The position numbers and the translations under genes were made by a program. The notes under the pieces are model-generated. The model had not been told where the DNA came from. It ran no database searches and was given only the letters and a program-made list of their open reading frames with translations. Shown one piece after another: positions 1-15,883 of a stretch of 64,000 nt of DNA. The DNA lies in the NCBI GenBank assembly GCA_965242965.1, contig OZ251518.1:1760001-1824000 (forward strand). Reading direction: 5' to 3'. Source of the DNA: Candidatus Poribacteria bacterium. GTDB taxonomy: Bacteria; Poribacteria; WGA-4E; WGA-3G. Within the stretch, counting starts at the first letter, position 1; every line of letters begins with the position of its first letter.

Positions 1-235
1 GGAGGGAAACACACATCGTGACGATGGAGATCGCGGGGGACAGGCCCCCGCGCTACGATAAAAAACGCCGCCCCCTCACCGTAGGGCGAGGGCCCTCGCA
101 TGCCACACGCGCATGCGAGAGGGTTTCCCTCGCCAGTGCTCGCGCACTCCAACGCTCGCGGGGGACAGGCCCCCGCGCTACGATAAAAAACGCTGCCCTC
201 TCACCGTAGGGCGAGGGCCTGTCCTTCGCCATCAA
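1..235. repeat. Cluster of REP-like palindromes (CGCGGGGGACAGGCCCCCGCGCTAC and GTAGGGCGAGGGCCTGTCCCTCGCC families)
   Basis: The same palindromes recur in many intergenic regions of the window. Confidence 0.85.
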
Positions 236-240
236 CGGGT

Positions 241-1050
241 CTAACCGACCTCTTCGCCGTCCAATTTGCCAACGTGCAGGTCGATCTCGTCACGAGACTC
301 TATTTTATCCACCTTGCCATCTGCCATGTGAAAAATCCGGTCGGAGACATCCAACATCTTGTGATCATGCGTTGCAGTGATGATCGTCACGCCGTTCTCA
401 GCGTTGAGACGACGCAAGAGCGCGATAATCTCCAGCCCGGTTTTGGTATCCAAATTCCCCGTCGGTTCATCAGCGAGGACAATGGCCGGGTCATTTGCCA
501 GCGAGCGCGCAATAGCGACGCGCTGCTGTTGTCCACCGGAGAGTTCTAACGGCTTGTGTTGAACCCGGTCTCCGAGGCCAACAAGGGAGAGGAGTTCCAC
601 CCCGTGCTCTCGGCTATCGTCGGCACTCGTCCCGGCGAAAATCATCGGGAGAGAGACGTTCTCCAACGCCGTCATGACAGGAATCAGGTTGAAGGATTGA
701 AAGATATAGCCGATTTTGCGGCAGCGAAGCCACGCGAGTTCATACGCATCCAACTGCGCGATGTCCACTTCGTCGATATAGACTCTGCCTTCGGTGGGTT
801 TGTCTAAACCGCCAATCATGTTGAAAAGCGTTGACTTCCCGGAGCCGGAGGGGCCCATAATCGAGATGTATTCGCCGCGCTGGATCTGGAAATTTACCCC
901 GCGCAGGGCATCGACGGTAGTCGTGCCCATCTCATAACGCTTGATCAGGTTCCGGACGCGCACGGTATTCTCCTTCGGCAGGATGCGCTGGAGGCGTTCC
1001 GGTGTTTCAGCGAGGTTCGGTTGCATATCGCCATTGCCTTGCATGTTCAT
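241..1050 (-). CDS. ABC transporter ATP-binding protein, MacB/LolD type
   Basis: Walker [19 protein letters not shown], signature [13 protein letters not shown], Walker [12 protein letters not shown]-loop ATHD; AGGA RBS upstream of ATG 1050. Confidence 0.95.
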
Positions 1051-1096
1051 TTTTTTGTATTCCTAGCGGTTGTTCCGCTTCATCTAAGCAGAGAGA

Positions 1097-1564
1097 TTAC
1101 CGACGTTTGGGTAAAAATCCGAAACGTTTCTGGGGTTCCAATTCTTGCGTTACGGGCGCGTTCGCGTTGGTGTCCGTCGGGATTGCGAACCCGATGAAAT
1201 TCCGCTTGCCGAGTTGCTGCATGAACGTAAAAAGCGAGGTCTCGGCTTCCTTCCGGGTCAGCTGGTGTTGCTTTTGGATACCCTTGATGATCTGCGCGAT
1301 CGTATGCTTGCCATCGCACATCTGCCAGACAAAGGTGCCCATCGCATCCAGCACGATGACGCGTTTATTCGGGAGCATGAAAAGTTTGCTTGCGAGCCGC
1401 ACCCACAACTTGTCCTTTTGTGGCACGACAAGGGATGCTTCACCTTTGTCGTCCACCTCCCACGTGATGAGTTGATTCCGAACGGGGAACGCCTTCATGA
1501 TGCGCCCCCGCGCCATGTCAGGCCGTTTCTTCAGTTTGAGAGCATATAGCAGTCTATTTAGCAT
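1097..1564 (-). CDS. PqqD-family / RiPP recognition element (RRE)-like protein
   Basis: LDAMGTFVWQMCDGKHTIAQII...FMQQLGKRNFI fits the PqqD winged-helix consensus; ATG 1564 follows AAGGAA. Confidence 0.8.
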   Translation of the reverse strand: MLNRLLYALKLKKRPDMARGRIMKAFPVRNQLITWEVDDKGEASLVVPQKDKLWVRLASKLFMLPNKRVIVLDAMGTFVWQMCDGKHTIAQIIKGIQKQHQLTRKEAETSLFTFMQQLGKRNFIGFAIPTDTNANAPVTQELEPQKRFGFLPKRR

Positions 1565-1603
1565 TTTTTCGTTCCTTAGGTGCGCACTTTGTGGCAAACG
1601 ATG

Positions 1604-2599
1604 TTAATGGCATTGAATACTCGCTGCCACCTGCTTCACCGTGCCCTCGGCATCCACGCCGCCCACAGATTGGATGACGTAGATGCGGTTAGAATGATGG
1701 CACCGCCACAAGTGAAACACCAGCGTTGCGCGTTTTGACACCTTGTCAAGTGCCAGCACCGGCGAGAACGGCACGCTGTCGTAGAGCCGCGTCTGTTGCC
1801 CGATGAGCGTGAGTTGTTCATCATCGGCATCGGGGTGAGAGGTTACCTCAAATCCGTAGCCGCGAATCGCTTTGGCATATTTCGCGCGAAACCACGCCTC
1901 TAACGGGTTCGGTTCTGCCTTAAAATCGCCGAGCATTACCTCAGCCGGTCCGTAGCGTTCAACGCTGAGCCGCTGTTGCTCGGCAAGGATAGGCACACCT
2001 TTCGCCGCCGGGATGACATGCCGCAGCCTTGAACGTTTCACAACAAAGGCGAACAACAAATAGCCGCTCAGCAGTTTCTGCCGTTCCAATTTGTATTCGC
2101 TTGGGACAGCGAGCGCGAGGCCGTAAGCACTCCACAACGTATTCGGCGCATTGTGCTGCGTGGAAATAGAACGGAAGATGCGCAGCACAGTCGGCCGCCA
2201 ATTCTCTTTCAACCGTCCCATGACTTGGACGATGGTAATCCGTTTGCCGGCGTGTAAAATGAGTCCATTGGCGCGGATGCTCCCCTTCCAACTGAACCCG
2301 ATGACGGTGCGCCCTTTAAAGAATTCGGGTTCCTTGATAAGGGTGACATTCCGGCGGAAGGAGAGTTCCTTACCCTTTTTGTAACTCTTGCGGATGAGCT
2401 TGAAGTATTCGTCAAGCGTTGCGTGCAAGTCAGGTTTTTTCTTCCGCGTGTGCGCCCATTTGAGCTCAAGGCGTGGCATTTCCGCATCGTCAAGGCGGAG
2501 ATATCCGGTCTTCTCATCGCCACTGAGCCCGCTCAGTTCCCACTCTTTTGGAATTTCTAGTTGCGTGCCTGCCCATCCGAAAACAGTCCAGTCGTCCAT
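1604..2599 (-). CDS. Hypothetical protein with two similar halves
   Basis: 331-aa ORF with RBS, co-oriented in the operon; FGWAGTQLEIPKEW..GYL resembles WSAYGLALAVPSEY..GYL. Confidence 0.8.
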   Translation of the reverse strand: MDDWTVFGWAGTQLEIPKEWELSGLSGDEKTGYLRLDDAEMPRLELKWAHTRKKKPDLHATLDEYFKLIRKSYKKGKELSFRRNVTLIKEPEFFKGRTVIGFSWKGSIRANGLILHAGKRITIVQVMGRLKENWRPTVLRIFRSISTQHNAPNTLWSAYGLALAVPSEYKLERQKLLSGYLLFAFVVKRSRLRHVIPAAKGVPILAEQQRLSVERYGPAEVMLGDFKAEPNPLEAWFRAKYAKAIRGYGFEVTSHPDADDEQLTLIGQQTRLYDSVPFSPVLALDKVSKRATLVFHLWRCHHSNRIYVIQSVGGVDAEGTVKQVAASIQCH

Positions 2600-2669
2600 T
2601 TTTCTGTTGTTCCTAGCGGTTGTTTTCGCTTGCCTCGTCTCTTCTTGCAGGCATTAGCTAGATTTATCT

Positions 2670-2936
2670 GAGGATGTTTCATAAATCCGTTTCAATAGTT
2701 ATCCCCCCTTGGGGCAGGGCGACTACCGAAAGGCATCGGGCCCACCTCTGTAGTTCGGGATCGCCTGATCCCGAACGGGTCAGGATCAGGCGATCCTGAA
2801 CTACAGGGGGGATGCAGTCCGACAGCCAAACGCATGGCGAGGGCCTGTCCCTCGCCCTACGTGAAGGGGCGGCGTTTTTTTCACCGCAGCGCGGGGGCCT
2901 GTCACCGCGACGTTGAGCGATTTATGAAACACCCTC
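2670..2936. mobile_element. MITE-like element, copy 1
   Basis: TIRs GAGGATGTTTCATA / TATGAAACACCCTC; flanks ATTTATCT / ATTTATCC; REP-like palindromes inside. Confidence 0.75.
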
Positions 2937-3002
2937 ATTTATCCAGATTTATTCCGTAGGCGCGGTTTCAAACCGCGCCTACGGAATTTCTATATCCGCC
3001 TG

Positions 3003-4991
3003 CTAAAACGGTTTGACAATCACGGCTTTGGAGACGAGCGCGATTGCCACCGTGCCCATGCCGATTAAGCCGACACCGCAGGCGAATCCCGCCGCCAGCA
3101 CCGGGTTGAACATATACCACCGACGCATACCGAACCGTTTGATCATGTAGAACCGGCCGATAACCGCACCGAGCAGACGCGCTACCATGCTACCCGGGTC
3201 AGCCAGGGCACCACCTGCGATGCCGTAAAACCACATCGAGGGGAGTTTGAACACCCAGAGCAACCCATAAAGCGCGAGCATTGAGGTAAAGCCGGCGGAG
3301 ACATAATCGCCGCGAATTGCCTGAAGCATTTCGCTATTCCCATCCCTAAGCGACGTTTTCCACAGACATTCGTTCGTGGCGTTGATGGGCCACATCATCT
3401 GGGCAAACGGATATTGCGCGCTCGGAATTGGCGCGATCTTCCAGATAAAATGCATCACGACAATGCCGCTAACGAGCAAAATCGGCATAATCAGCAACGT
3501 GCCGGCGAGGTTTGACGTGAATGTCGTGCCGGTAAGTTCCAGCACACGCCAGCCTTGCGTGCCTCTACCGTAGTCTTCGTCGGGAAGCGGCGCGAACCAA
3601 ATGTCCACCTCTTCATATCGGCTCAAAATAAAGGTAATCTCATGCAGATACGGGATTTCAAAAAGGTCGCGGCCCAGCACACCGAACGTTCGTGCCGTGA
3701 TATACGAATTAATCGGTGTATACAGGAACGCATACCCGAGCAGGAAACTGAGTGGGAAGTTCGGCACCATCCAGTGGATAAGCCAGACGAAGCCTCCCAT
3801 GCCGATGAGCCACATCGCGCCCATGAGCCAGATCGGGAAATCACCGCGATTCGGCGGCGTTGCGAATGAACCGCGTTCGCCAGCCTTTTTGCGCGCTTTC
3901 TGCATCTTAAACAGCATCGGAATAGAGGCCGCCATCCCCACAACTGCGAAGCTGAACGATTTGCCCATCCCGAAACTCATCTCAAAGTCAAGGCTGTTGA
4001 ACAAATTAGTTGCCCGCACGTCAAGTCCCGGATTCCATTGATACAAGATTTCAGCCGGGTAAAGAATCTGCGGTTTTAAGATAAATTGCGATACCATCGC
4101 CGCGATGAACTCCGACATCATAATCGGGAACGGCATGACGAACCCGATCAGCATCTGTCCGAAGTCCGTGCGGAGCGCGAACACGCCGGTCGGCGCGAAC
4201 CCTTCGATACTCTGCGTGAAATCTATCCACGGAATCTTCAGAATCTCAATCGGCTGGCTCATCATCACGCCGGAAAGAGCCGGAACGCCGATATAGAGGA
4301 AACCCCATATCAGGCCCGCCATGGAGCCGATGGAAAAGACGCGCCACCGCCAGGTCTCCTCCTTACCGGTAGTTTCCGCGAGTGCCGTCGCGCCTTGCGC
4401 GCTAATCGGTGCCATCGGATACGGAAGCCGTTCCAGGTCTGCCGTGAGCCGGAACAAGATATACTGGCCACTCACAAACCGCAGCGTGCCGAGTAGTTTG
4501 CCAGCGAGGTAGATTGCAATCGGCAGGAACCAGTCAGGGTGCAAGAGGGTCCGCGTCAGCACCGCGGCAGAATCGCCGGCTGGCACAATCCATGCCGGAA
4601 TCTTATCGGCGATTTCATAAGAAGCCGCCTGCGGCGTATTCACGAAGTAGGCATACCAGATGAAGTTGCGGTATTGCATCCCGCTTCCGACAGCAGCACC
4701 CGTGAGGCCGAGGAGCATATAGAGCTCCTGCCGCCGGGCTGTCGTAAAGGAACGCCGCGCGAGTTCAGTAAACAGAATCACTGCTACCCACGGTGCCGCT
4801 TCCGCGCCGGATTGGCCGGATACATAACTGAGATAGATGGAGCCGGGCATCATCAGCAGCCCTACAAAGAGCGCGCCGATGAAGACTTTGACGGTGAGAC
4901 CGGACTCAAAGGTGCGGATGCCGCCTTCGATGTCGTATCGTTTCGCCCAAGCTTGCCATTCATCTGCTTGTGATACTCTTTCTCTCGCCAA
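3003..4991 (-). CDS. OPT-like (oligopeptide transporter-related) polytopic membrane protein
   Basis: 662 aa with many hydrophobic segments; ERLPYPMAPI resembles the OPT LxFP motif; TTG start after AGGAG. Confidence 0.7.
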   Translation of the reverse strand: MARERVSQADEWQAWAKRYDIEGGIRTFESGLTVKVFIGALFVGLLMMPGSIYLSYVSGQSGAEAAPWVAVILFTELARRSFTTARRQELYMLLGLTGAAVGSGMQYRNFIWYAYFVNTPQAASYEIADKIPAWIVPAGDSAAVLTRTLLHPDWFLPIAIYLAGKLLGTLRFVSGQYILFRLTADLERLPYPMAPISAQGATALAETTGKEETWRWRVFSIGSMAGLIWGFLYIGVPALSGVMMSQPIEILKIPWIDFTQSIEGFAPTGVFALRTDFGQMLIGFVMPFPIMMSEFIAAMVSQFILKPQILYPAEILYQWNPGLDVRATNLFNSLDFEMSFGMGKSFSFAVVGMAASIPMLFKMQKARKKAGERGSFATPPNRGDFPIWLMGAMWLIGMGGFVWLIHWMVPNFPLSFLLGYAFLYTPINSYITARTFGVLGRDLFEIPYLHEITFILSRYEEVDIWFAPLPDEDYGRGTQGWRVLELTGTTFTSNLAGTLLIMPILLVSGIVVMHFIWKIAPIPSAQYPFAQMMWPINATNECLWKTSLRDGNSEMLQAIRGDYVSAGFTSMLALYGLLWVFKLPSMWFYGIAGGALADPGSMVARLLGAVIGRFYMIKRFGMRRWYMFNPVLAAGFACGVGLIGMGTVAIALVSKAVIVKPF

Positions 4992-5069
4992 ATTATGTTT
5001 CTCCTATTTTTTATGTCGCAAGGCGTTGGAACAAATTATCAGACGCTTTGCGAACCGGGGGACCGCGCC

Positions 5070-5276
5070 TTACTCCCCCGACGTACCCCCGTCTCCGGAA
5101 TCGTGTTCTTCGTCTCCAGAATCTTGAAACTCTTCCCAAAAATGGGCACAGAAGATGCCGACTGTCAGCACGAGCGCGGACAACATCTGCCATTGCCAAC
5201 GGCCCTCAAGCGCGAAAATGCTGAACAGCCATAAAGCTGTGCCGAGAATAATGATAAGACTCGCTATTTTTTCCAT
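5070..5276 (-). CDS. Small two-TM protein with acidic tail
   Basis: 68 aa, AGAGGA RBS, two hydrophobic helices, then EEFQDSGDEEHDSGDGGTSGE; lies inside the operon. Confidence 0.7.
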   Translation of the reverse strand: MEKIASLIIILGTALWLFSIFALEGRWQWQMLSALVLTVGIFCAHFWEEFQDSGDEEHDSGDGGTSGE

Positions 5277-5324
5277 GCTAATTCCTCTTTTTCAGTGCGC
5301 GCCGCCCCATCGGCGAAAGCACCC

Positions 5325-5530
5325 CGTAGGCGAGACCTCCTGGTCTCGATGCATCGGTTTCGGGACTCGCCATGCGTTTGGCTGGCAGACCGCATCACCC
5401 CTGTAGATCAGGATCGCCTGATCCTGATCTGTTCGAGATCGGGCGATCTCGAACTACAAAGGTGGGTCCGATACTCATCGCATTGCCGCGTGAGAATCCT
5501 ATCGCTGCACTCCCGAACTACAAAGGTGGG
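5325..5530. repeat. REP-like palindromes (GTAGGCGAGACCTCCTGGTCTCGAT; GTAGATCAGGATCGCCTGATCCTG)
   Basis: Match families seen elsewhere in the window. Confidence 0.75.
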
Positions 5531-5583
5531 CCCAATGCCTCTTCCGCCGAGCCTGAGCGATAGGATAAACGACATGCGGCCGA

Positions 5584-8500
5584 CTAACCCGCTGACGTTA
5601 CCGCCGGTTCTAACCGCGGTGCCTCGCCTGCTTCCTCTTCGTCCGGGACAGCATTTTCGGTTCTGCCGCGTTCGTGGAACTCGGCACGGATATCAACGCT
5701 GAATGTCCGCCAGATAAGGAGCTGCTTCCGCAGCAGATTGAGGAACCGTCGGTTCACACGCTTCCACGACGCAATCTCGCCACTTTCGCGATGCACCTCT
5801 AACGTGATTTTGTAGAGGTCCTCCTCCTCGCCGCCGACTGGCGAAGTGACAAACTTGATGGACTGGCTCACGCCTAAGTCGTAAGGTGCCAGCCATACCA
5901 TCATGCCGATCTGGTAAGACTCCTCGTCTGCTTCGCTGAATGCCACCTGGTCTGTGTAGAAATCGCTCGCCGATTCGTCTGCGTGCGCCTCAAAATAGTC
6001 GCGCATGAAGACGTTCAAGCCGAGTGCTTCCTCCTCCAGCACGGTGAACGGCAGGTTGAAATGCCACACGTCGCCTTCCGGTTCTGGCAGTTTCCACTTC
6101 CGTTCGATATCCGGCACCGCCATCCGTGATGCCTTCAGCGCGGGATACAGCGTGCTGAGCAACACGACTACCATGACGACAATCGTGGCGACGACGGTGG
6201 ACATTGACGAGTAGTTCAACGTCAACCCCGCGAGCCAACCGAAGTTCACCAAGGTCGTCGCAATAGCCTGTCCCATCAGATACCCTAGCACTGCGCCGAC
6301 GATGGCGTAGACGCACGCCTCCGCAAGGAACAGGAACGCGATATGCACCGGCGCAAGCCCGACAGAACTGTAAATGCTTATCTCGCGCACGCGCTCGTAA
6401 ACGGCACCGAGCATCGTGTTTAACACAATCAGCGCGGCGATGAGAATCGGCACAAACAGATTGCCCATCCCACTGAAACTCGTCATCCCGATACTGCTGT
6501 AGAGATAGGTATCCTTGTCGCGCCCGACAAAGAAGTCCAACGCGATCCGGTTCATCAGCGGTGCCATAATCAGGTCCAACTTGTCAATCGCACCGAGTAA
6601 CTGCGGATCATCGGCTCGCGGCTCCATATTCACAGCCACGCTTCGGAGAGTGCCGCCTTGATTCATGACTACCTCGTAAGGCAGAATAGCGACGCTGTCC
6701 GGGGTGAGATGCAGATATTTCTGCAGTTCGCCTTCCAGTGTTTCGTCACCGGTTGCCCCGCGGCTCCGTTGCTGTTGCATGAGTTGGTAATCAACCGGGG
6801 TGAGTTCCTCACCATCGTTATCGGTGAGGTCCTTGAAGCCGATGCCTAGCACCCCGACGACGGTGAAGTCTGCACCGTAAACCGAGACGGTGGCTTTGCC
6901 CATATCACTTTCAGTGATTTTGAGCAGTTCCGCCATCCCTTTCGGCAGCACGATGGCATAGGGCCATTCTGTCGGCCAGGCATCCGAATCGCCCGGCTCA
7001 AACCACTTGCCGTATTGGAGGTATCTGTCAATGCCGCTGACACCGGGTTCCTGTTCATTCATACCGACGAGCATGTTCGCGGCGAAGGTTAACGCCTCAC
7101 CGGTGAGGGGATGCGTCGGCGGCACCGGGTCTGACGGATTTTGGGTGCGTGTCAATTGGACAAAGGACTGATCGCCTGTCCCAGACGACTGATACCACGC
7201 CCGCGGTGCGACAACGTTCTGCACGGTGAGAACGGGTTCTTCGTCAACCTTCTCAACAAAGCCGTCCTGCTCCAATGAAGCGAGGGCTGCCGCTGTATCA
7301 ATCGGCTGCTGCCCCTGTTTCGCCAACAGTTCGCTTTTGCGTTGAAGCAACCGTTCCAGCGCGTCCAACGTAATCTGCGTTTTCTGCATATCGTTTAGCA
7401 CAGAAGTAAGCACAGGTTCTTCCAAGGGCCGCCAGTACTGGTCCCGGATGAGGAGCCCCGTGTAGCGCGGCGTGACTTGCGGAAGGCTGGTGCGGTTCGG
7501 ATGCATGAACGTCCGCACCGATGTAAACGAGATGACGGTGAACGTCAGAATGACAAGCGTGCAACAGGTGAGGATAGTGCGTCCTTTCCGTTTCCGCATG
7601 TTGGAAATGCCGAGGCTAAACGCCGCCGCGCTAGCACTCAGCCTGCCGACATCTGCCTTGTAGACATTGCTGCCCTCTTGTCGGATTTTCTCCAATTGCT
7701 CCTCGAACTTCCGCACGATAATGCTGATGACGATTACCGTGAGCGCGAGCACAACGAACGCAATCAGGATAATCACGGGTGTCGTCGTGATTTGGAACGC
7801 GGGATGCACCTGACTTAAGAAGAAGAAGACAAGCAGGAAGATACCGAACGCACCGAGGATCTGCTTGTGGATGTTCGGAAAACCGAAGATGAGCCGTTCC
7901 ATGAAGTAGGCGAACGGCATCAGCAGCGCGAGGTAGAACATCACACCGTTGACGACATCATTTCCTGTCTGCTTGACATCCGGATAGGCGCGCGATTCAT
8001 ACCCCCACGCCGCACGCGCCAATTTCAAAGCCTGCTGATAATCGTTTTGCAGGAGTTCGGTTTCGGCTCTATCCAGATATTCGTTGGCAAATTGGTGCAG
8101 TTTATCCAGTCTGTCGCTGGAGATACCGAACCGTTTATAGAGACGGGAACGGTTTTCATCAAGCCACCACATATCACGGACAACGACGTAAGGCGTGAGG
8201 CGGATTTGCCCGTTCTCCCGAACGACGAACCCCTCACCCGTGTAAAGCGTCGGGTTTTTCATGCCGCTCTTTGTCGCTTTGATGAGGAGCAATCGCTTCC
8301 CGATTTGCCCGTATGCCATTCCCACTTTGATGCGGGTTTCCGGTTCGCTGTAAACGAGCGCGATAGGTTCAGCGGCGGAAACGCCTTCCTGTTGCCACGG
8401 TTTAGACATCCCGAACTTTTCAGGCGGACTATCCGTGAGCGCATCGTAAACCTCCAATTCGCGCAAAGTTCGCAGATACCGCTGATCTACCAGATCATAG

Positions 8501-11500
8501 ATAGTTGTTGATACACACGGGAAGGTGACAACGCGACAGCCGCGTCGGCGCGTATTGATAGGTATCTTATTCGGAAGCAACTTCGCGCCGTAATTCCCTA
8601 AATCGGGCGCGTAGACGATGTCGCCAGAATCCGCATCCAAAATGTATGCCTCCACCTCTTGCACACCGCCGAGTCTGCGCGTGGCTCTGCCTTCCATGGC
8701 GAGCCCCGCCATTTCAAAGTTGCCTTTGTTATCTCCCATGACAAACAGATCGCCGCGCACCCCCATCATCGTCTTATTCTTGCGGCGCAGCGTCAAAATA
8801 GGATAGGGGACAGGCTTATTCGGCAGTGCCGATTCGCGCGCGTCAAACTCAACGACATCGCCGAAGAGGTTGCAATAAAAATTGCCGACGCGGGCCGCCG
8901 TGGGCATCTCCTCATCTCGCAGCGCTTGGAGGAGAAGCGATGCCAGCGTCTGTGCCTGTTGGTGAAGGTTGCCGCCCTCACGCAAATCCACTCTATCAAT
9001 GGTATCCAACGGGGTATCAGTTAAGACGCGCGCGTCCTCAATCGTGGCGAACGCGATGCCGGTTTTTCCGACAAGCGTGGCGACTTCACTGTCAAACGCA
9101 ATCTTGCCCGGAATGTAGGTTTTCCACGTTTTCCCGCCGCTAGCAGAAATGGCGTTGACGAAGTTCGACGCGCCGCCGAGCCCCGCGATGCCGATAAGGG
9201 TTTTGATGTCATCAATCTCCTCCTCGGTGAAAGTATCCGGGTCTTCGTGACGGAGCCGCAACATCGCGTCCAGCTGCTCGCGGGTGCGGATATTATTCTT
9301 GCGGTTTTTCTTCGCCGTGCGGACATCGTTTCGGATGAACCGTTCAACTTCCTTCCGGACGTAGTCCATATCCTTCAGCATATCCTCAGAGGGTTCACCG
9401 CGGTTTCGCCACTGCTCAAACTGCATTTTCATCAGCCGACTTACGCCGCTGAGCCCTGTCAGTTTGCCGTAATGAGAGCTGAGCAGCGTCTCCAGCGTTT
9501 TGCCTTCCAGCGCGGCTTTATCGGAGATGCCGCTTGCGACACCCCACTGCCGCGCCATGACTGCCTGACGGATCTGGTCATCGCTCCACTGCCACAACTT
9601 CCGCACACGCACGCCGAAATCGGCATCCTCGGCGTAAGAAGCAAGTTTATTACCGATGCTGGCAAATTCGCGGCGTAACACAAACTCCGGCTGCTGATCA
9701 TAGAACCAGCCTTTATTAAATACGCCGAATTGATTGGACTGTGAAGACAAGTCGATGCTGACATAGAGGGAGGTATAGTAGCGGTTAAAAAGGTCCTGCA
9801 GCGCAATCGCCGAATCAATTTGCGCAAGTTTTCGGCTATACTCGTCCGCGTCAATCCGTATCATCTTTTCAACACGGCTTTGGATGTTGCGGAAACGTGC
9901 GTTCCGGAGAGTCAATAGGTTATCGCGCAGTAGCACCTTCGTCTCCTCATCAAGATCGGTGTTTAAGGTAGGGAGCCGCTCGATGAGGTTATCAAGCGCG
10001 ACGATATCCGACGCTGCACGCCGTTTGACGATTGCCAAGAGTTTTTCCTCTGTCATGTGCGCGGCAACGATGGAACGCATCCGAAGGCCCTCTGCCATCT
10101 CATCGGCGGAAAGGTAATTTTTGAGGATGAGTTGTTCCTCGTCCAGATACCCCCTGTCCAACGTGGCGTGCGTCGCCAGCAGGTGTTGGATGCGGGTTCG
10201 TTCCAAGCGCGCGTTCCGCAGCGCGATTTCGAAGATACTCTGCTTATCCTTGAGCAAATCAGCGATGAGGATGGCAGAATCGCTCGTGTCATCGGATTCG
10301 GTTAACCGCTGTTTGAGTTGCGCATCAATGGTGCTCAGCCGTTCAAGTCCTGCTGCCGATAGATACTGCCCATCGTAAACCACGCTGGTGGCGATTTGCG
10401 CCATGCCGATATCCTTAAGTTTTCGGATGCTCGTCTTGATTTCGTTTTCAACCTGCTCGCTGTCCCTGATTTGGGACAAGACCTTTTGCAGGAGTTCCTT
10501 TTCCCGCTGAATGGCTGTTCCGCGCGATGCGTTTGCGTCGCCGAGGACTTTCCGTGCATCTTTGACGCGGTTGAGTGCGTGAAGATCGAGATGCCGGTCC
10601 AGAATTTTTTCCGGTGTCCACATCAGTGCGAATTTCCGCTTGTCGCTCATCTCCCAGTCGGCAAGCGTCTGGTTCAGCATCTCAATTTCTGCCGTCAATT
10701 CTGGCGGCAAGTCAGCCGGCACAGGGATATCCCATCCATCTTCCCGTTCTTCAGGGAGAAGATAAGCGTCATTCGGGTGCGCGCTGTATCGGGATTGCGT
10801 GGCGTTTTCAACGCTGCTGATGAGTTTATCAACTGCCCAAGTATCCAAGCGTGCTATCGGCAGTGCCAACGTTTCAATGAGTTCTCGTTGCGCGACGCGG
10901 CTCGTATCTAACGCCACCGTGCGCACTTGTGCTAAGCGTTGGACGATGTCGCGGAGGAAGTGCGTCGTCTGTAAAGCCTCCTTCTTGGAACGCGCGAGGT
11001 TGGCCAACAGCAGACTTTTCTCCTCATCGGTGAACCCTTGCTTCTCGCGTTTTCTATTCCGGTCCGCCTGTTTTTTCTGGCGTTCAGAGAAATCGCGCTG
11101 TTTCGTATTCAAGTCTTCGATTTGCGAGCGCGTTTCTGCGAGGCCGTCTAGGGTTATCGCGAGGGAATCCAGGTCAGATTTGATAGCGTGGATACCGAAA
11201 AAGAAGTCGCCGGGCAAATCAACAAGCACGCTTCTGTCAATAGAAAGCAGCAATCGCCTGCCGAGTTCCTCGAATTCAATAATATCGGTAGAGAGCCCGC
11301 GGCGGAGTCCGTGCATCGTCGGCGTGCCGGGGGAATCGGTGTCTGAACCGACGATGTCCTGTCCGATACCTTCCATAAAGGCGCGCATGCCGGCGAGCCC
11401 CTGGAAATGTGCATCCACAGCAACAAAAAGGACAGAGCGGCCCGGACGGTATTCCGGTTGACTGAAGAGGCGTGCGAGTTCCATCAACACAGCGATACCG

Positions 11501-12915
11501 CACGTTGGATCTGCCCCGGGAGCCAGTGCCGGCACGACAGACATTGAATCGTAATAAGCAGTCAACACGACGAGTTCGTCGCGGAGCGTCGGATCACCGC
11601 CTTCCAAAAAGCCGCGGATATTCTGTCCGATGCCGCGCTCCCACGTCATCTTTCCTCTCATACGAACGTTCACATCGATACCGGTATCTGTCTCTAACAT
11701 TTCCCTTAACGCCGCGCCGTCCGCCTTGGATATCCAGAAGCGTGGGATGTTTGCGGGGACGGTGCCGAATTTATTCTCCGCCTCGCCACGAATCGTGGTT
11801 TCCGGTTCAACGAAGATAACGGCAGTGCCGCCGAGCATCGCGGCGTTGATGTAGCGGGTGCTAGAATTGAAATCGAGCAGGACTATCGCGCCTTTCGGAA
11901 TGAAGATGTGTGCTTCACTCGCGGCGACAAATTCGCCGGATTCGTCAATTTCGCCGTCCCTATTGTTATCAATGCCATCTGTTTCATCGCCGGGGATTTC
12001 ATCGGTTGCGCCATCGGCATCATTGTCAATACCGTCGGTTGCCCATCCGCGGATTTCGGATAAGAGCGGAATCTCGCCGTATTCGTCCACGGTGCCATCT
12101 TCGTCATTGTCAATCCCATCAGATGCCTTTTGGAGGTGTCCGTTGAGCACATCGTCGGTGATGCTTGCTTCGGTGATGCGGTTGCGCCGGGCAAGGGAGG
12201 TGAGGGTATCGCCATCCTGCAGTTCATACCAATAGCCGCCGATGTTCGTGCCGTTGAAGTCGGCGAGCTCCGCATCGTCGCCGTAAAGGAGCGGACCGGA
12301 CAACCCACCTGTCGGAATAAAGACGGTGCTGCCTTCAACAACAGGGGTTGCGATGAATTTGTTCTTTTCATGCGCGCGGATAATATCGGCGGAGACCTGG
12401 TAGCTATCAGCGATTTCCTGAAGCGTTTCGCCGGGGAGAACGGTGTGTTTAATGCCATCTGCCAGCAGCGAGGTGCGCACGAGGTTGGGCCAAAACGGTG
12501 TCAGTTTAAAGGTGTGCAGCACGGTCCCCTCAGCGGAAAGCACCTCAATGACACTACCCCCCCGGGCGTTCGGGAAAGTCCCGTGGTCGACTGGGACAGT
12601 GACGGTGAACTCACGACTCTCTACGTTTTGCAAACCGATTTCAACGAACCGGTCGAAGATGTATTTGCTGCCGCTCGCGGCTTGCGGGTAGCCGGTGACG
12701 CGACTCTCTAGGCTGGATAGCCGCGCGATGTCCTTCCGGAGGTTGCCGATGGACAAATCGTCTCGGATTTGAATAGCCGCGGTTTTCATCCCTACGGCTG
12801 TCTCTGCCTCTTCAACAATTTGCTGTGCATTGACACGTTCAAACGGCGTGGCAACGAAGCAAAGGCCGAGGCAGAATAGCAGAAGCAGTATCTGCACGTT
12901 ATAGCTGCGTTTCAT
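5584..12915 (-). CDS. Giant envelope protein: signal peptide, 2 LysM-like domains, DGIDND repeats, degenerate M28 peptidase-like domain with coiled-coil insert, C-terminal FtsX/MacB-type permease
   Basis: N-terminal hydrophobic signal; HTVLPGETLQEIADSY and YELQDGDTLTSLARR; 3x DGIDN[DN]xDGxxDE; LTAYYDS..APGAD..GIAVLMELAR; LNTMLGAVYERVREISIYSSVGLAP...FLAEA (FtsX permease motif). Confidence 0.85.
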   Translation of the reverse strand: MKRSYNVQILLLLFCLGLCFVATPFERVNAQQIVEEAETAVGMKTAAIQIRDDLSIGNLRKDIARLSSLESRVTGYPQAASGSKYIFDRFVEIGLQNVESREFTVTVPVDHGTFPNARGGSVIEVLSAEGTVLHTFKLTPFWPNLVRTSLLADGIKHTVLPGETLQEIADSYQVSADIIRAHEKNKFIATPVVEGSTVFIPTGGLSGPLLYGDDAELADFNGTNIGGYWYELQDGDTLTSLARRNRITEASITDDVLNGHLQKASDGIDNDEDGTVDEYGEIPLLSEIRGWATDGIDNDADGATDEIPGDETDGIDNNRDGEIDESGEFVAASEAHIFIPKGAIVLLDFNSSTRYINAAMLGGTAVIFVEPETTIRGEAENKFGTVPANIPRFWISKADGAALREMLETDTGIDVNVRMRGKMTWERGIGQNIRGFLEGGDPTLRDELVVLTAYYDSMSVVPALAPGADPTCGIAVLMELARLFSQPEYRPGRSVLFVAVDAHFQGLAGMRAFMEGIGQDIVGSDTDSPGTPTMHGLRRGLSTDIIEFEELGRRLLLSIDRSVLVDLPGDFFFGIHAIKSDLDSLAITLDGLAETRSQIEDLNTKQRDFSERQKKQADRNRKREKQGFTDEEKSLLLANLARSKKEALQTTHFLRDIVQRLAQVRTVALDTSRVAQRELIETLALPIARLDTWAVDKLISSVENATQSRYSAHPNDAYLLPEEREDGWDIPVPADLPPELTAEIEMLNQTLADWEMSDKRKFALMWTPEKILDRHLDLHALNRVKDARKVLGDANASRGTAIQREKELLQKVLSQIRDSEQVENEIKTSIRKLKDIGMAQIATSVVYDGQYLSAAGLERLSTIDAQLKQRLTESDDTSDSAILIADLLKDKQSIFEIALRNARLERTRIQHLLATHATLDRGYLDEEQLILKNYLSADEMAEGLRMRSIVAAHMTEEKLLAIVKRRAASDIVALDNLIERLPTLNTDLDEETKVLLRDNLLTLRNARFRNIQSRVEKMIRIDADEYSRKLAQIDSAIALQDLFNRYYTSLYVSIDLSSQSNQFGVFNKGWFYDQQPEFVLRREFASIGNKLASYAEDADFGVRVRKLWQWSDDQIRQAVMARQWGVASGISDKAALEGKTLETLLSSHYGKLTGLSGVSRLMKMQFEQWRNRGEPSEDMLKDMDYVRKEVERFIRNDVRTAKKNRKNNIRTREQLDAMLRLRHEDPDTFTEEEIDDIKTLIGIAGLGGASNFVNAISASGGKTWKTYIPGKIAFDSEVATLVGKTGIAFATIEDARVLTDTPLDTIDRVDLREGGNLHQQAQTLASLLLQALRDEEMPTAARVGNFYCNLFGDVVEFDARESALPNKPVPYPILTLRRKNKTMMGVRGDLFVMGDNKGNFEMAGLAMEGRATRRLGGVQEVEAYILDADSGDIVYAPDLGNYGAKLLPNKIPINTRRRGCRVVTFPCVSTTIYDLVDQRYLRTLRELEVYDALTDSPPEKFGMSKPWQQEGVSAAEPIALVYSEPETRIKVGMAYGQIGKRLLLIKATKSGMKNPTLYTGEGFVVRENGQIRLTPYVVVRDMWWLDENRSRLYKRFGISSDRLDKLHQFANEYLDRAETELLQNDYQQALKLARAAWGYESRAYPDVKQTGNDVVNGVMFYLALLMPFAYFMERLIFGFPNIHKQILGAFGIFLLVFFFLSQVHPAFQITTTPVIILIAFVVLALTVIVISIIVRKFEEQLEKIRQEGSNVYKADVGRLSASAAAFSLGISNMRKRKGRTILTCCTLVILTFTVISFTSVRTFMHPNRTSLPQVTPRYTGLLIRDQYWRPLEEPVLTSVLNDMQKTQITLDALERLLQRKSELLAKQGQQPIDTAAALASLEQDGFVEKVDEEPVLTVQNVVAPRAWYQSSGTGDQSFVQLTRTQNPSDPVPPTHPLTGEALTFAANMLVGMNEQEPGVSGIDRYLQYGKWFEPGDSDAWPTEWPYAIVLPKGMAELLKITESDMGKATVSVYGADFTVVGVLGIGFKDLTDNDGEELTPVDYQLMQQQRSRGATGDETLEGELQKYLHLTPDSVAILPYEVVMNQGGTLRSVAVNMEPRADDPQLLGAIDKLDLIMAPLMNRIALDFFVGRDKDTYLYSSIGMTSFSGMGNLFVPILIAALIVLNTMLGAVYERVREISIYSSVGLAPVHIAFLFLAEACVYAIVGAVLGYLMGQAIATTLVNFGWLAGLTLNYSSMSTVVATIVVMVVVLLSTLYPALKASRMAVPDIERKWKLPEPEGDVWHFNLPFTVLEEEALGLNVFMRDYFEAHADESASDFYTDQVAFSEADEESYQIGMMVWLAPYDLGVSQSIKFVTSPVGGEEEDLYKITLEVHRESGEIASWKRVNRRFLNLLRKQLLIWRTFSVDIRAEFHERGRTENAVPDEEEAGEAPRLEPAVTSAG

Positions 12916-13047
12916 AAGGTTCTCCTTTCAGCACGACAGGTGCCATCTTTTTCAGGCGACGCAAAACCGCCGCGTTTCCCCTATTTCTGGTGGCACAATG
13001 TTTGTATTTCGGGTTTTTATTTCGGCGTTTTCGGTGCATTTAAACGT

Positions 13048-13076
13048 ATTATAGCAAAATTGCAACTTTTTGTCAA
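13048..13076 (-). promoter_or_regulatory. Sigma70 promoter of the giant operon
   Basis: TTGACA-17 bp-TATAAT on the minus strand, about 130 bp upstream of ATG 12915. Confidence 0.8.
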
Positions 13077-13096
13077 CATTAAATTTGCATTTAATC

Positions 13097-13551
13097 GAGA
13101 ATGTTTCATAAATTCCCGTAGGAGAGACTTCCTAGTCTTGATGCAATAGGACGGTGCGCCTACCGGGGCCGCGGCGGCAGAAGGTCTCCCCTTCATCGTA
13201 GGGCGAGGGCCTGTCCCTCGCCGTGCGTTTGGCTGTCAGACCTCCTCACCTCTGTAGGTCAGGATCGCCTGATCCTGACCTGTTTGTGATCAGGCGATCA
13301 CAAACTACAGAGGTGGAAACACACATCGTGACGATGGAGATCGCGGGGGACAGGCCCCCGCGCTACGGTGAAAAAAAACGCCACCCTGTCACCGCAGGGC
13401 GAGGGCCTGTCCCTCGCCATCGTCCGCGCAATCTAACGCTCGCGGGGGCCTGTCCCGCGCTACGGGAACATCGAGACCAGGAGGTCTCTCCTACCGGAAA
13501 TCGAGCCCCGAGGTCTCTCCTACTGAACACATCGAAATATGAAACACCCTC
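13097..13551. mobile_element. MITE-like element, copy 2
   Basis: TIRs GAGAATGTTTCATA / TATGAAACACCCTC; exact 8-bp flanking duplication ATTTAATC (13089-13096, 13552-13559). Confidence 0.85.
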
Positions 13552-13593
13552 ATTTAATCAATCAGGAAGGCCGCAAATGCATCATTTTCCTTG

Positions 13594-14712
13594 CTACAAT
13601 TCCGGCACGAGGCACACTTTGCCGAAATTTTGGCGGTTTTCCAACAACGTATGCGCTTCGCTGGCACGCCGCAACGGCAGAACACTGTCAATAATCGGTT
13701 CCAACTTTCCCTTTCCGGCGAGATGGATGAGTTTGCGGAGTTCTGCGCGAGTGCCGAGCGCGGAACCCATCAACGTCAATTCTTTCTGATACATCTTTCG
13801 GATGTCAATCTCGCCGATGTTGCCTGTCGTCACACCGCAGGAGACAAGCCGTCCGTTTTTGGCGAGACTGGCGATGCTCTGTCCCCAGGTCGCCGCACCG
13901 ACATGTTCTAAAACCACGTCAACGCCGCGGCCATCTGTCTCTTCTAGCACCGCTTCCGAGAAATCTCTCTCTGTGTAATGGATCACGACATCTGCGCCGA
14001 GTTCGCGTGCGCGCGCGCATTTTTCCGTGGTGCTTGCCGTGGCGAAAATCCGCGCGCCGGCCAGTTTCGCAATCTGCAATCCCGCGCTACCGACGCTGCC
14101 ACCGGCACCGAGGATTAAGATGTCTTCGCCGGGACGAAGCTGCGCGCGCGTCATCAGCATGTGCCACGCCGTTAAGTAGGCGATGGGCATCGCAGCGGCG
14201 TTGACAAACGACAACGAATCGGGTATCGGAATCGCGTTTTGCGCCGGTGCTTTGACATATTCCGCGTATCCGCCGTTTGTCTGGAAACCGATGAGTTGTT
14301 GCGTCGCGCATAAATTTTCGGCACCGCGATGGCAATCGCTACAAACTTCGCACGGAATGCAAGGCGCGAGGACAACCCGTTCGCCTACAGTAGGCGAGAC
14401 CTCCTGGTCTCGATGCAATATCCCGGTAGGCGAGACCTCCCGGTCTCGATTTCTTCCGGTAGGCGAGCCCTCCCGGTCTTGATGCTCAACGACGACACCT
14501 GCGATATCCGAGCCGAGAATATGCGGCGTATCGCCACGGCGAAGTTTCTCAGCGATTTCGGGACGGTTACGGCGTGCATGGATATCCAGATAATTCACGG
14601 CGCATGCCTCTACCTTCACGAGGACATCGGTTGCGTCTAGCGGCGGTTTGGGGACATCTGTCCAGCGCAACACCTCGGGGCCGCCTTGTTCTGAGAAGAC
14701 AACTGCTTTCAT
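13594..14712 (-). CDS. Zinc-binding alcohol dehydrogenase / quinone oxidoreductase (MDR family) with in-frame repeat insertion
   Basis: MKAV start, ACAVNYLD, ILGSDIAG, structural Zn CxxCxxCx7C, GAGGSVG, NFGKVCL. Confidence 0.9.
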   Translation of the reverse strand: MKAVVFSEQGGPEVLRWTDVPKPPLDATDVLVKVEACAVNYLDIHARRNRPEIAEKLRRGDTPHILGSDIAGVVVEHQDREGSPTGRNRDREVSPTGILHRDQEVSPTVGERVVLAPCIPCEVCSDCHRGAENLCATQQLIGFQTNGGYAEYVKAPAQNAIPIPDSLSFVNAAAMPIAYLTAWHMLMTRAQLRPGEDILILGAGGSVGSAGLQIAKLAGARIFATASTTEKCARARELGADVVIHYTERDFSEAVLEETDGRGVDVVLEHVGAATWGQSIASLAKNGRLVSCGVTTGNIGEIDIRKMYQKELTLMGSALGTRAELRKLIHLAGKGKLEPIIDSVLPLRRASEAHTLLENRQNFGKVCLVPEL

Positions 14713-14749
14713 ATTCTTTCGTCCTTTGCACCGGTAGGAGGGCCCTCTT

Positions 14750-15062
14750 GGCATGGCGAGGGACAGGCCCTCGCCCTACGATGAAGGGGTCGTTTTTTAT
14801 CGTAGCGCGGGGGCCTGTCCCCCGCGATCGTTGCATGGCGAGGGACAGGCCCTCGCCCTACGATGAAGGGAATCGTTTTTTCCCGTAGCGCGGGGGCCCT
14901 CGGATGCCATCCGCGCATCCGAGCGGGTTTCCCCCGCGATCGTTGCATGGCGAGGGACAGGCCCTCGCCCTACGATGAAGGGAGGCGGCCTTGACATCCG
15001 TAGCGCGGGGGCCTGTCCCCCGCGAGCGTTGCATGGCGAGGGACAGGCCCTCGCCCTACGAC
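14750..15062. repeat. Tandem array of alternating REP-like palindromes
   Basis: Repeated GCATGGCGAGGGACAGGCCCTCGCCCTACG ... GTAGCGCGGGGGCCTGTCCCCCGCG units. Confidence 0.85.
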
Positions 15063-15073
15063 TGCGGCCTCAT

Positions 15074-15883
15074 TTAACCGTAAGCACCGTGATTAAGAAA
15101 CCCTAGCAACCGACGCAACCGGGGATTCGCATCCTTGTAAACAGACATCGGCATCGAATAGTTCATAAACGGATAATACTTGTGCCCCACGAGACGGCGC
15201 GCATACGTAACCTGCGTGATATAGCGCGTCCGCTGACTCTGATTCGGACCGCCGCGATGCCAGACCTGGTTGTTGAACATCACCACGCTACCCGCTTTGC
15301 CGAGGTTATACCGGATCTTGTCGGCCCATTCCGATTCTTCCAACGCTTTCGGCGGCGACGCGCCGACGAGATGTGAGCCCGGAATCACCTCTGTCCCTCC
15401 GTGTTCAACTTCGGTGACATCGGTGAGGTAATAATTCGCCGTGAACAGCAGGACAGGCAGGCGCACGTTCGTCGGCGGTTTCCCATCAGTCACGATGTAA
15501 TGTGGGGCATCGTCTTGGTGCCACGTCGTAATCCCGCCGCCGGGGTAAGTCTGGAACGAATTGTTATGGATAACGTGGCAATTTTCGGCGACGAGTGCTT
15601 CCGCAAAGGTGACGATGGGCTCCATGTCAAACAGTCGGCGATTCGCCTCGCTGTGCTCAAACATCCGATGGCTCAGGTGCATGCGTCCACCGGGGTTGCC
15701 GCTGTTTAAGCCGTTAGGATTGTTTTCAAGGGCCCATTCCAGATCTTGGCGAAGTTGCGCGCACCAATCGGGTGGCAAAACGTCCTGCAGGAAGAGGAAG
15801 CCTTGCCGATGGAAAGTCTCCACCCATTCCTGAATTTGCGCGTCCTTGACAGTTTGATGTGCCAAGTAAGTTGTTTGTGCCAT
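15074..15883 (-). CDS. Phytanoyl-CoA dioxygenase (PhyH) family 2OG-Fe(II) oxygenase
   Basis: FHRQGFL, WHQD, GGTEVIPGSH, AGSVVMFN..WHRGGPN. Confidence 0.9.
   Translation of the reverse strand: MAQTTYLAHQTVKDAQIQEWVETFHRQGFLFLQDVLPPDWCAQLRQDLEWALENNPNGLNSGNPGGRMHLSHRMFEHSEANRRLFDMEPIVTFAEALVAENCHVIHNNSFQTYPGGGITTWHQDDAPHYIVTDGKPPTNVRLPVLLFTANYYLTDVTEVEHGGTEVIPGSHLVGASPPKALEESEWADKIRYNLGKAGSVVMFNNQVWHRGGPNQSQRTRYITQVTYARRLVGHKYYPFMNYSMPMSVYKDANPRLRRLLGFLNHGAYG

Follow-up and report, generated by a model that had tools for sequence, protein, structure and literature searches.

The window analysed here, a stretch of 64,000 nucleotides from the genome of a sponge symbiont, a Candidatus Poribacteria bacterium (contig OZ251518.1, positions 1,760,001 to 1,824,000), carries near its left end a cluster of six genes for a putative ATP-binding cassette (ABC) machine of the cell envelope. 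In the direction of transcription, they encode a giant FtsX-type permease, a 68-residue membrane peptide, a 662-residue membrane protein distantly related to the OPT superfamily, a soluble protein of 331 residues (hereafter u331), a small PqqD-like protein and an ABC ATPase (Table 1). A sequence-only reading of this stretch had described six co-oriented genes behind one predicted consensus sigma-70 promoter, with repeats in the two largest gaps and with LysM, M28-like, FtsX, PqqD and ABC ATPase domains among the products. All of these features were recovered, and the named domains are borne out by Pfam.

Table 1. Features of the cluster, of the giant permease and of the unlinked partner genes. 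Nucleotide positions are those of the window unless another contig is named; residues are those of the giant.
Feature	Location	Strand	Basis or detail
Giant permease, 2443 residues	5584-12915	minus	open reading frame (ORF)
68-residue membrane peptide, predicted lineage-specific accessory gene	5070-5276	minus	ORF
662-residue polytopic membrane protein, distant OPT superfamily member, predicted cognate partner of the giant	3003-4991	minus	ORF
Soluble 331-residue protein u331	1604-2599	minus	ORF
PqqD-like (RRE-type) small protein, 166 residues	1097-1597	minus	ORF
MacB/LolD/FtsE-type ABC ATPase, 269 residues, usual motifs all present	241-1050	minus	ORF
Sigma-70-type promoter-like site	13048-13076	minus	TTGACA, 17 nt, TATAAT, TG extension; ~130 nt upstream of the giant gene
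Two terminator-like hairpins with T-runs	89-68, 212-195	minus	downstream of the ATPase gene, within repeat copies
Dispersed palindromic repeat copies, OPT-like/u331 gap	2713-2906		families D1, D2; inverted pairs I1, I2, I4, I8
Dispersed palindromic repeat copies, giant/68-residue gap	5323-5540		D1 reference copy 5366-5465; D11; I2, I7, I9
Giant: N-terminal signal or anchor transmembrane segment	residues 7-25		hydropathy
Giant: three acidic DGIDN-type repeats	residues ~262-322 (DNA 11950-12130)		DGIDN-x-DG-x-DE; DNA repeat family D6
Giant: PA/M28-like domain	residues ~340-515		non-canonical metal site
Giant: poribacterial charged insert	residues ~560-1245
Giant: conserved beta-rich ectodomain	residues ~1345-1545
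Giant: extra three transmembrane segments	residues 1654-1733		followed by a cytoplasmic linker
Giant: MacB-type module	first transmembrane segment 1780-1798, three FtsX segments 2154-2256		periplasmic domain of ~355 residues in between
Giant: C-terminal cytoplasmic alpha/beta domain	residues 2270-2443		~175 residues
Small FtsX orthologue and second ATPase	G000:C1:3046609-3048047 (locus L098:9610-11048)		outside the window

The gene cluster and its predicted proteins

The giant is recognized by the Pfam FtsX model (PF02687) over residues 2155-2265, with 47.7 bits vs. a cut-off of 25.5. Peptidase_M28 matches residues 432-515 with 36.2 bits, spanning only profile positions 1-78 of 193, and LysM (PF01476) matches residues 157-180 with 29 bits (cut-off 20.9) over only profile positions 1-24 of 43, while the matches to PA (21 bits) and to MacB_PCD (15.3 bits; cut-off 27) are both sub-threshold. 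When the family profile is compared with the PDB, only the FtsX module has relatives (MacB 5lil, E = 5.9e-16). An AlphaFold2 (AF2) model of residues 1245-2443 (predicted local distance difference test score, pLDDT, 74.3; predicted TM-score, pTM, 0.63) contains a beta-rich ectodomain, long stalk helices, a MacB-like periplasmic domain and an alpha/beta C-terminal domain. Foldseek relates this core to MacB, LolC/E, YtrF, HrtB, YbbP and BceB, over the whole chain in the case of MacB and LolC/E, and the MacB periplasmic domain 3ftj is matched with a TM-score of 0.47, normalised to the target. The modelled topology, i.e. a first transmembrane segment, an extracytoplasmic domain of MacB-like fold and three further transmembrane segments, is that of a type VII ABC permease. 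A reading of the giant as a duplicated, ADOP-like FtsX permease was rejected, since its extra three transmembrane segments align with those of the FtsX module with an hhalign probability of 0.1%; only one FtsX module is detectable by sequence.

The M28-like site is non-canonical in 28/28 aligned sequences. We take the aminopeptidase reference positions His97, Asp117, Glu151 and Glu152 to be the co-catalytic zinc ligands and the catalytic Glu. The first of these is occupied by Tyr in 23 sequences, Phe in 4 and Ser in 1, never by His; the second by Asp, Glu or Gln; and the fourth by Phe, His, Tyr, Cys or Gly. The position of the catalytic Glu151 is His in 28/28, and since this His is invariant, the site may be altered rather than dead. 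No canonical M28 metallopeptidase site is present in the 28-sequence alignment.

Giants of other phyla are 1500-1900 residues long, and those seen whole all keep the family N-terminal region and the C-terminal core. In the four of them scanned with Pfam, FtsX is matched in 4/4, M28 in 3/4 and LysM in none. LysM and the charged insert appear limited to Poribacteria, LysM being an addition rather than part of the core. The acidic DGIDN-type repeats look like calcium-binding repeats and occur only in the poribacterial giant.

The 662-residue protein has no match in Pfam or NCBIfam and no PDB relative by sequence profile. Among its homologues, 3 of the 16 aligned match the OPT model PF03169 (best E = 7.2e-8), as do 5 of 120 database homologues among the matches listed, and some are labelled 'peptide transporter' by NCBI. 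These matches support a kinship to OPT at the superfamily level only. Of 41 related genomes, 40 encode the protein, with identities of 72-100%. In one poribacterial genus, two genomes (G032 and G038) carry a tandem pair of OPT-like genes with 74-77% identity to the query, and at another locus (L054:10001-11990) the gene is split into two overlapping ORFs, possibly through a frameshift or an assembly error.

The 68-residue peptide has one segment above the hydropathy threshold, a second hydrophobic stretch behind it and an acidic C-terminal tail. It is encoded in 40 of the 44 poribacterial loci described below, being absent from the basal loci L049-L051 and L053, and in 0 of the 35 loci of other phyla, and is presumably a poribacterial lineage-specific addition. 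The six-part set that had been proposed is present as listed, with the LysM domain and this peptide standing outside the core.

u331 has no match in Pfam or NCBIfam and no PDB relative by sequence, and in the ESM Atlas nothing beyond unnamed clusters from its own family was matched, the next-best structural rows having TM-scores < 0.5. Its N- and C-terminal halves align with each other (hhalign probability 96.8%, E = 2.9e-10), i.e. the protein is a tandem internal duplication. With its AF2 model (pLDDT 89.1, pTM 0.86), Foldseek found 18 PDB matches at E ≤ 0.001, nearly all of them to PsbP or Tli4/TplEi; Mog1p is matched as well. The two-domain type VI secretion system immunity protein Tli4/TplEi is matched with E = 1.5e-5, and single PsbP domains are matched with TM-scores of 0.50-0.59, normalised to the target. 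Sequence identities in the Foldseek alignments are 9-17%. The modelled fold of u331 is thus a tandem PsbP/Mog1-like one. The invariant residues in the family alignment are Trp, Gly, Pro, Arg and Asn; the alignment has no invariant Ser, Cys, His, Asp or Glu and no catalytic signature. The protein has neither a signal peptide nor a transmembrane segment and is predicted to be soluble and cytoplasmic.

The u331 family comprises 1835 representatives at 50% identity (E ≤ 0.001), and the best 150 are all single-domain proteins of ~200-430 residues. Of 151 Poribacteria genomes drawn from across the phylum, 146 encode the protein; among the 131 high-quality ones, 128 do. A putative metal site, made up of a CxxC motif, a Cys close to 'SNRIY' and a Cys-His at the C terminus, is shared by most homologues; the window's genus and its close relatives have lost the CxxC and carry, around residues 186-209, a variable insert. 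The u331 match runs across one TAA in many genomes belonging to one genus.

The PqqD-like protein matches Pfam PqqD (PF05402) with 42.4 bits vs. a cut-off of 23.4, and its family profile finds PqqD (3g2b, E = 6.9e-7) and the lasso-peptide protein TbiB1 (5v1u, E = 1.4e-6) in the PDB. Its best NCBIfam rows are chaperones of ribosomally made, post-translationally modified peptide (RiPP) pathways, all far under their cut-offs. The gene most likely starts at Met12 (position 1564), giving a protein of 155 residues, because most poribacterial orthologues begin there. A complex prediction for u331 and the PqqD-like protein, run without controls, scored 0.01 vs. a mark of 0.32 and is evidence neither way.

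The ATPase belongs to ABC_tran (E = 5.3e-35) and has LolD, DevA, DarD, YbbA, MacB and FtsE as its best NCBIfam rows, all under the curated cut-offs. LolD (TIGR02211) comes first with E = 4.8e-70 and 235.5 bits vs. 307.75; DarD reaches E = 2.9e-64, and FtsE (TIGR02673) E = 1.2e-62 with 211.4 bits vs. 264.85.

The promoter-like site ahead of the giant gene scores 12/12 as a sigma-70 site with an extended -10 TG. Between positions 1 and 14000, 10 promoter-like sites were found vs. 7.8 ± 2.3 in shuffled sequences, i.e. no excess, and this site is the sole perfect one and alone stands out as a candidate promoter. The two largest intergenic gaps (2600-3002 and 5277-5583) both contain dispersed palindromic repeats, which also occur outside the operon at 1-240 and 13160-13500. 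The repeats form GC-rich palindromic families of ~30-150 nt that resemble repetitive extragenic palindromic sequences or miniature inverted-repeat transposable elements, and some make terminator-like hairpins. The insert between the giant and OPT-like genes varies by up to ~3 kb among poribacterial loci, and the gaps are thus hot spots for such elements. A scan of positions 1-14000 for riboswitches and known RNAs gave a single sub-threshold chance match, on a palindromic repeat.

Upstream of the cluster, also on the minus strand, lie genes for a zinc-type alcohol dehydrogenase (13594-14754) and a PhyH-family dioxygenase (15074-15883), while a SelA/aminotransferase-like protein and a metallo-beta-lactamase-fold protein are encoded to the left of the window. 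The genes flanking the cluster on either side do not recur beside the system in other phyla.

Conservation and two-module organization

In order to compare the cluster with its relatives, we fetched 44 poribacterial loci and, through the OPT-like protein, 35 non-poribacterial loci. Database homologues bear the name Candidatus Poribacteria. The taxon labels are those of the public records, namely: Armatimonadota (including Abditibacteriaceae, Zipacnadia and Hebobacterum), WS1, Planctomycetota/Brocadiia, Gemmatimonadota, Latescibacterota and others. By homology, the same parts are present in at least six bacterial phyla. Gene order is constant in all 44 poribacterial loci wherever the contig extends far enough, and the gene immediately upstream of the OPT-like gene is the giant gene in 27 of the 35 other loci and in all poribacterial loci long enough to show it. 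The sequence-only reading had left it to gene-neighbourhood searches whether the set is conserved across phyla, and these searches show that the homologues are indeed co-located.

The arrangement of the remaining genes differs between lineages. In 8 Armatimonadota-type loci, the OPT-like gene is followed by u331, the PqqD-like gene, a gene for a small FtsX protein and the ATPase gene, whereas in 5 WS1/Zipacnadia loci the order is small FtsX, ATPase, giant, OPT-like. In one Gemmatimonadota, one Latescibacterota and one Brocadiia genome, u331-PqqD-small FtsX-ATPase forms a stand-alone operon (below, the engine operon), with the giant and OPT-like genes elsewhere, part of them adjacent to each other and part not. 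In the first two of these genomes (L100, G044:C2:156000-172000; L101, G045:C39:120000-136000), the engine operon lies near the genes for SecA and a RecN-like SMC ATPase, with a CDP-alcohol phosphatidyltransferase gene also close by in L100. This housekeeping neighbourhood may reflect inherited synteny rather than a functional link.

The small FtsX protein of the other phyla has ~200-250 residues and four transmembrane segments (PF02687, E = 1e-15 to 5.5e-19), and in 16 loci, which represent at least five phyla, its gene is part of the cluster or of the engine operon. The two permeases have a single ATPase between them outside Poribacteria. In the window's genome, an orthologue of 225 residues, 43% identical to an Armatimonadota one (E = 1.1e-43), is encoded 1.28 Mb away, where its gene overlaps the start of a gene for a second MacB-type ATPase of 286 residues, followed by that for a 550-residue FRG/TPR protein. 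The second ATPase is 62% identical to the window's ATPase and 59% to an Armatimonadota cluster ATPase; the window's ATPase shares 65-74% identity with the cluster ATPases found in other phyla. The arrangement suggests that the ATPase was duplicated in Poribacteria only, with a hetero-dimeric ATPase as a possible outcome. Of 41 poribacterial relatives, 40 have a single small FtsX gene. The part list drawn up from the window therefore holds for the six genes named but is incomplete, the small FtsX and the second ATPase being encoded elsewhere in the genome.

At one Armatimonadota locus (L078:13367-14503), and only there, the PqqD-like and small FtsX proteins share a single open frame of 378 residues, whose C-terminal part is identical to a 211-residue protein in the database version of the sequence. 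Either the two genes have fused here, which would be rare, or they overlap in frame and an internal start is used. A PqqD/small FtsX fusion as a general feature was rejected, as no fused form occurs among the best 120 matches or in a word-limited search for longer forms with the window's PqqD-like protein.

A sample of 61 Armatimonadota genomes divides without exception into 46 that have all three of u331, the OPT-like protein and the giant core and 15 that have none of them. In the 46 carriers, u331 is always present in one copy, and the number of giants equals the number of OPT-like proteins, split fragments being merged. The giant:OPT-like:u331 copies in four of five genomes checked are 1:1:1, 2:2:1, 4:4:1 and 3:3:1; the fifth has 1 giant, 1 u331 and 1 full OPT-like gene, together with an OPT-like fragment at the edge of a contig. 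Quick FastTree phylogenies of 43 giant cores and 54 OPT-like proteins, less the duplicates (midpoint-rooted, without bootstrap), contain a matching six-leaf clade with a Shimodaira-Hasegawa-like support of 1.0 in both, comprising the same adjacent pairs and one unlinked Gemmatimonadota/Latescibacterota pair, and the three adjacent giant/OPT-like pairs branch identically. By gene content, the system consists of six conserved proteins in two modules and is not one six-gene operon.

A proposed type VII ABC machine and competing explanations

Our preferred reading, to which we give a probability of about one half, places the cluster in a conserved type VII (MacB/FtsX-type) ABC machine of two modules, with an OPT-like path and a lean towards outward action. 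The giant core and its proposed small partner share the type VII ABC fold. A single-copy 'engine' (module 1) would join u331 and the PqqD-like peptide-binding protein to the small four-transmembrane FtsX protein and the LolD-like ATPase. Module 2, the 'cassette', would be present in one to four copies per genome, each pairing a giant permease one-to-one with an OPT-superfamily membrane protein. The single FtsX module of the giant and the small FtsX protein would together form an eight-transmembrane type VII core binding two ATPase subunits, which in Poribacteria would be the cluster ATPase and its paralogue. Mechanotransmission would then carry the effect of ATP binding and hydrolysis to the periplasmic domain of the giant and to its pseudo-peptidase ectodomain. 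No type VII ABC permease is known to offer a transmembrane path, and the OPT-like partner would therefore supply one for a peptide-like substrate. On the cytoplasmic side, the PqqD-like protein and u331 may act as a peptide-recognition or chaperone-like adaptor.

In the outward direction, a cytoplasmic peptide or polypeptide would pass from PqqD/u331 to the OPT-like protein, and the ectodomain would pull it or deliver it at the wall, with the help of LysM in Poribacteria. We lean towards this direction because the recognition parts are cytoplasmic and because all known, characterised type VII ABC systems act outward or at the periplasmic side. An ATP-driven complex that handles a peptide or (glyco)peptide at the envelope had been proposed from the sequence; a conserved, undescribed ATP-driven machine is supported by the present data, which show what the set is made of, how it is conserved, that its parts co-occur and which folds they have, while the peptide or glycopeptide substrate, suggested by family resemblances, the physical contacts and the direction of transport are inferred.

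Several observations weigh against this reading. The genome samples are dominated by metagenome-assembled genomes, and related genomes are not independent samples. Of the 8 non-poribacterial loci without an upstream giant, 1 breaks off at the OPT-like gene and the other 7 lack a giant in the vicinity; in two genomes examined in which an OPT-like gene lacks an adjacent giant, giants are found elsewhere in equal number. A third paralogue pair is placed differently in the two trees, so that the mirroring of giant and OPT-like phylogenies is only partial. The small FtsX gene of the window's genome lies apart from the cluster, beside an ATPase gene of its own, so that it could belong to a separate transporter and the giant could be a homodimer. 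Only importers are known among the characterised OPT-family members, which opposes an outward direction. Finally, no conserved small ORF for a substrate was found in 24 loci, in a search that could miss short, fast-evolving peptides; its 14 largest clusters are shadow ORFs in the giant, OPT-like and ATPase genes.

The importer function of OPT proteins and the lack of a conserved substrate gene leave a substantial share to an uptake system, which we nevertheless hold to be unlikely. Here the same machine would run in reverse: the dead-peptidase/PA ectodomain, with LysM in Poribacteria, would take up peptides or muropeptides derived from the wall and pass them on to the OPT-like importer, gating or resetting of this receptor would fall to the ABC engine, and PqqD/u331 would receive or sense the incoming peptide. 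OPT-superfamily membership fits this directly, since characterised OPT proteins import peptides. A receptor-like M28/PA ectodomain lacking canonical catalytic residues also agrees with it, as does the presence of several cassettes with differing ectodomains on one engine, reminiscent of the specificity modules of nutrient uptake, and so does the LysM domain on this genome's giant, which however lies outside the conserved core. The uptake scheme conflicts with the outward or periplasmic action of the known type VII systems and with the cytoplasmic RRE-type domain, a domain known only from peptide maturation and export contexts, in line with its NCBIfam rows. It is also unclear why a proton-coupled carrier would need an ABC motor.

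A bolder version of the two-module machine, in the outward direction, is a new class of modular translocon in which the shared engine, with PqqD and u331 as its own peptide-recognition unit, would energise interchangeable cassettes of a giant pseudo-peptidase receptor-permease and an OPT-like channel, and would move ribosomal peptides or unfolded polypeptides through the inner membrane and on to the wall independently of Sec and Tat. We regard this version as doubtful.

A more remote explanation is an FtsEX-like regulator of wall remodelling that transports nothing, its ectodomain controlling a hydrolase or acting on peptidoglycan while the OPT-like protein recycles the products. The FtsX domain and the FtsE-like ATPase (TIGR02673, see above) are what such a regulator would have, and an ectodomain with LysM and a peptidase-like domain would suit it; the long charged insert recalls, by composition only, the coiled-coil partners of FtsX, and the SecA and RecN-like genes beside the engine in two phyla are housekeeping neighbours. 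This explanation is improbable for several reasons. The genome has a separate full-length FtsX-like gene (G000:C1:1697783-1698619; 300 residues, E = 3e-25 to TIGR00439), LysM and the charged insert are restricted to Poribacteria, and 15 of the 61 Armatimonadota genomes do without the whole system. Moreover, the one-to-one co-duplication of the OPT-like protein, the up to four cassettes and the cytoplasmic PqqD/u331 would be left unexplained.

The cluster might also bring together unrelated systems, with the giant homodimer and the cluster ATPase forming a MacB-like pump, the small FtsX protein and its ATPase a separate transporter, and the OPT-like protein, the PqqD-like protein and u331 acting independently. 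The 1.28 Mb between the cluster and the small FtsX gene with its own ATPase in the window's genome speaks for this, and MacB is itself homodimeric. It is very improbable, however, that unrelated parts would share the cluster or the engine operon in 16 loci from at least five phyla in the case of the small FtsX, be present or absent in concert in 61 genomes in the case of three parts, and occur in equal copy numbers in the case of the giant and OPT-like genes, with one ATPase for both permeases outside Poribacteria.

A RiPP biosynthesis and export cluster with PqqD as leader-recognition element, to which the PqqD/RRE domain with its sub-threshold RiPP chaperone rows and the MacB-type exporter (DarD being among the best rows) might point, is scarcely credible: neither the cluster nor the engine operons encode a radical-SAM enzyme, a cyclase, a protease or any other maturase family, in agreement with what had been noted from the sequence, no conserved precursor ORF occurs in the 24 loci, u331 lacks a catalytic fold and the invariant residues of one, and a near-universal single-copy set (146/151 genomes) is unlike accessory natural-product clusters.

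Relation to known systems and significance

By fold, the system belongs with the type VII ABC machines, and its companions (an OPT-fold protein, an RRE-type domain outside a RiPP pathway, a tandem PsbP/Mog1-like protein and a minimal FtsX partner) and shared-engine layout appear to be new. The giant shares the FtsX permease topology of MacAB-TolC, LolCDE, FtsEX, YbbAP-TesA, HrtBA and BceAB, and the cluster ATPase is of the LolD/MacB/FtsE type like theirs; as with LolC and LolE, a hetero-pair of two different FtsX proteins is likely. Unlike these systems, the giant has 1500-2500 residues, with a second, larger ectodomain, three extra transmembrane segments and a C-terminal cytoplasmic domain, whereas its proposed small FtsX partner has no periplasmic domain. 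The predicted machine further differs in its obligate OPT-like companion at equal copy number, in its cytoplasmic PqqD-like and tandem PsbP-like parts and in having one engine for several cassettes. No gene for a membrane-fusion protein or an outer-membrane duct is present in the clusters examined. The scores fall short of the curated equivalogs in each case: LolC gives 34.6 bits vs. 473 and lolCE 19.6 vs. 362, a separate LolC/E-like gene being present in the genome (E = 1e-69); FtsX_Gneg gives 14.7 bits vs. 255; LolD and FtsE fall short as given above; and the cluster is not a MacB equivalog either.

The other parts resemble known families while departing from them in context. The window's OPT-like protein shares the polytopic, ~660-residue build of the OPT family (PF03169, TC 2.A.67), yet it misses the Pfam model that 3/16 homologues match and is tied to an ABC machine, which is not known for any other OPT protein. 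The PqqD-like protein has the domain and the profile matches of the PqqD/RRE proteins of RiPP pathways, such as PqqD and TbiB1, but it has an N-terminal extension of ~60 residues, is encoded in a transporter operon between u331 and a permease gene, and has no partner maturase or precursor gene. u331 resembles Tli4/TplEi and other PsbP/Mog1-fold proteins in having two tandem PsbP/Mog1-like domains, which are protein- or peptide-binding modules rather than enzymes; beyond the low identities noted above, it has no sequence-level tie to a named family. The PA and M28-like ectodomain of the giant matches Nicalin, transferrin receptor and GCPII/III, with the canonical metal and catalytic residues replaced, although, in distinction to such inactive M28-like receptors, only the first 78 of the 193 profile positions align. 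An analogy, without homology, can be drawn to the energy-coupling factor (ECF) transporters, in which one single-copy energising module serves several interchangeable specificity modules; ECF systems are importers with small S-components, whereas here giant FtsX permeases are paired with OPT-like proteins. No description of a pathway combining these parts was found in a full-text literature search, judged from titles and abstract openings, which agrees with the earlier view that none has been characterised.

Type VII ABC systems such as Lol, FtsEX and MacAB are central to building the bacterial envelope, and few architectures are known. The present system ties one such architecture, with perfect co-occurrence and matched copy number, to an OPT-fold protein, to a leader-peptide-binding domain outside any RiPP pathway and to a new tandem PsbP-like protein. 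Nearly all Poribacteria have it, and it is also common across Armatimonadota, Gemmatimonadota, Latescibacterota, WS1/Zipacnadia and part of the Planctomycetota, phyla that for the most part are uncultured. If the translocon version were correct, it would provide the first OPT-fold conduit of an ABC machine and the first ECF-like sharing of modules among mechanotransmission ABC systems. If the proposed two-module machine exists, an OPT-fold protein could give MacB-type motors their missing transmembrane path, RRE domains would gain a role beyond natural-product biosynthesis, and some 1800 sequence clusters of the u331 family, together with several thousand small FtsX proteins, would gain a functional context.

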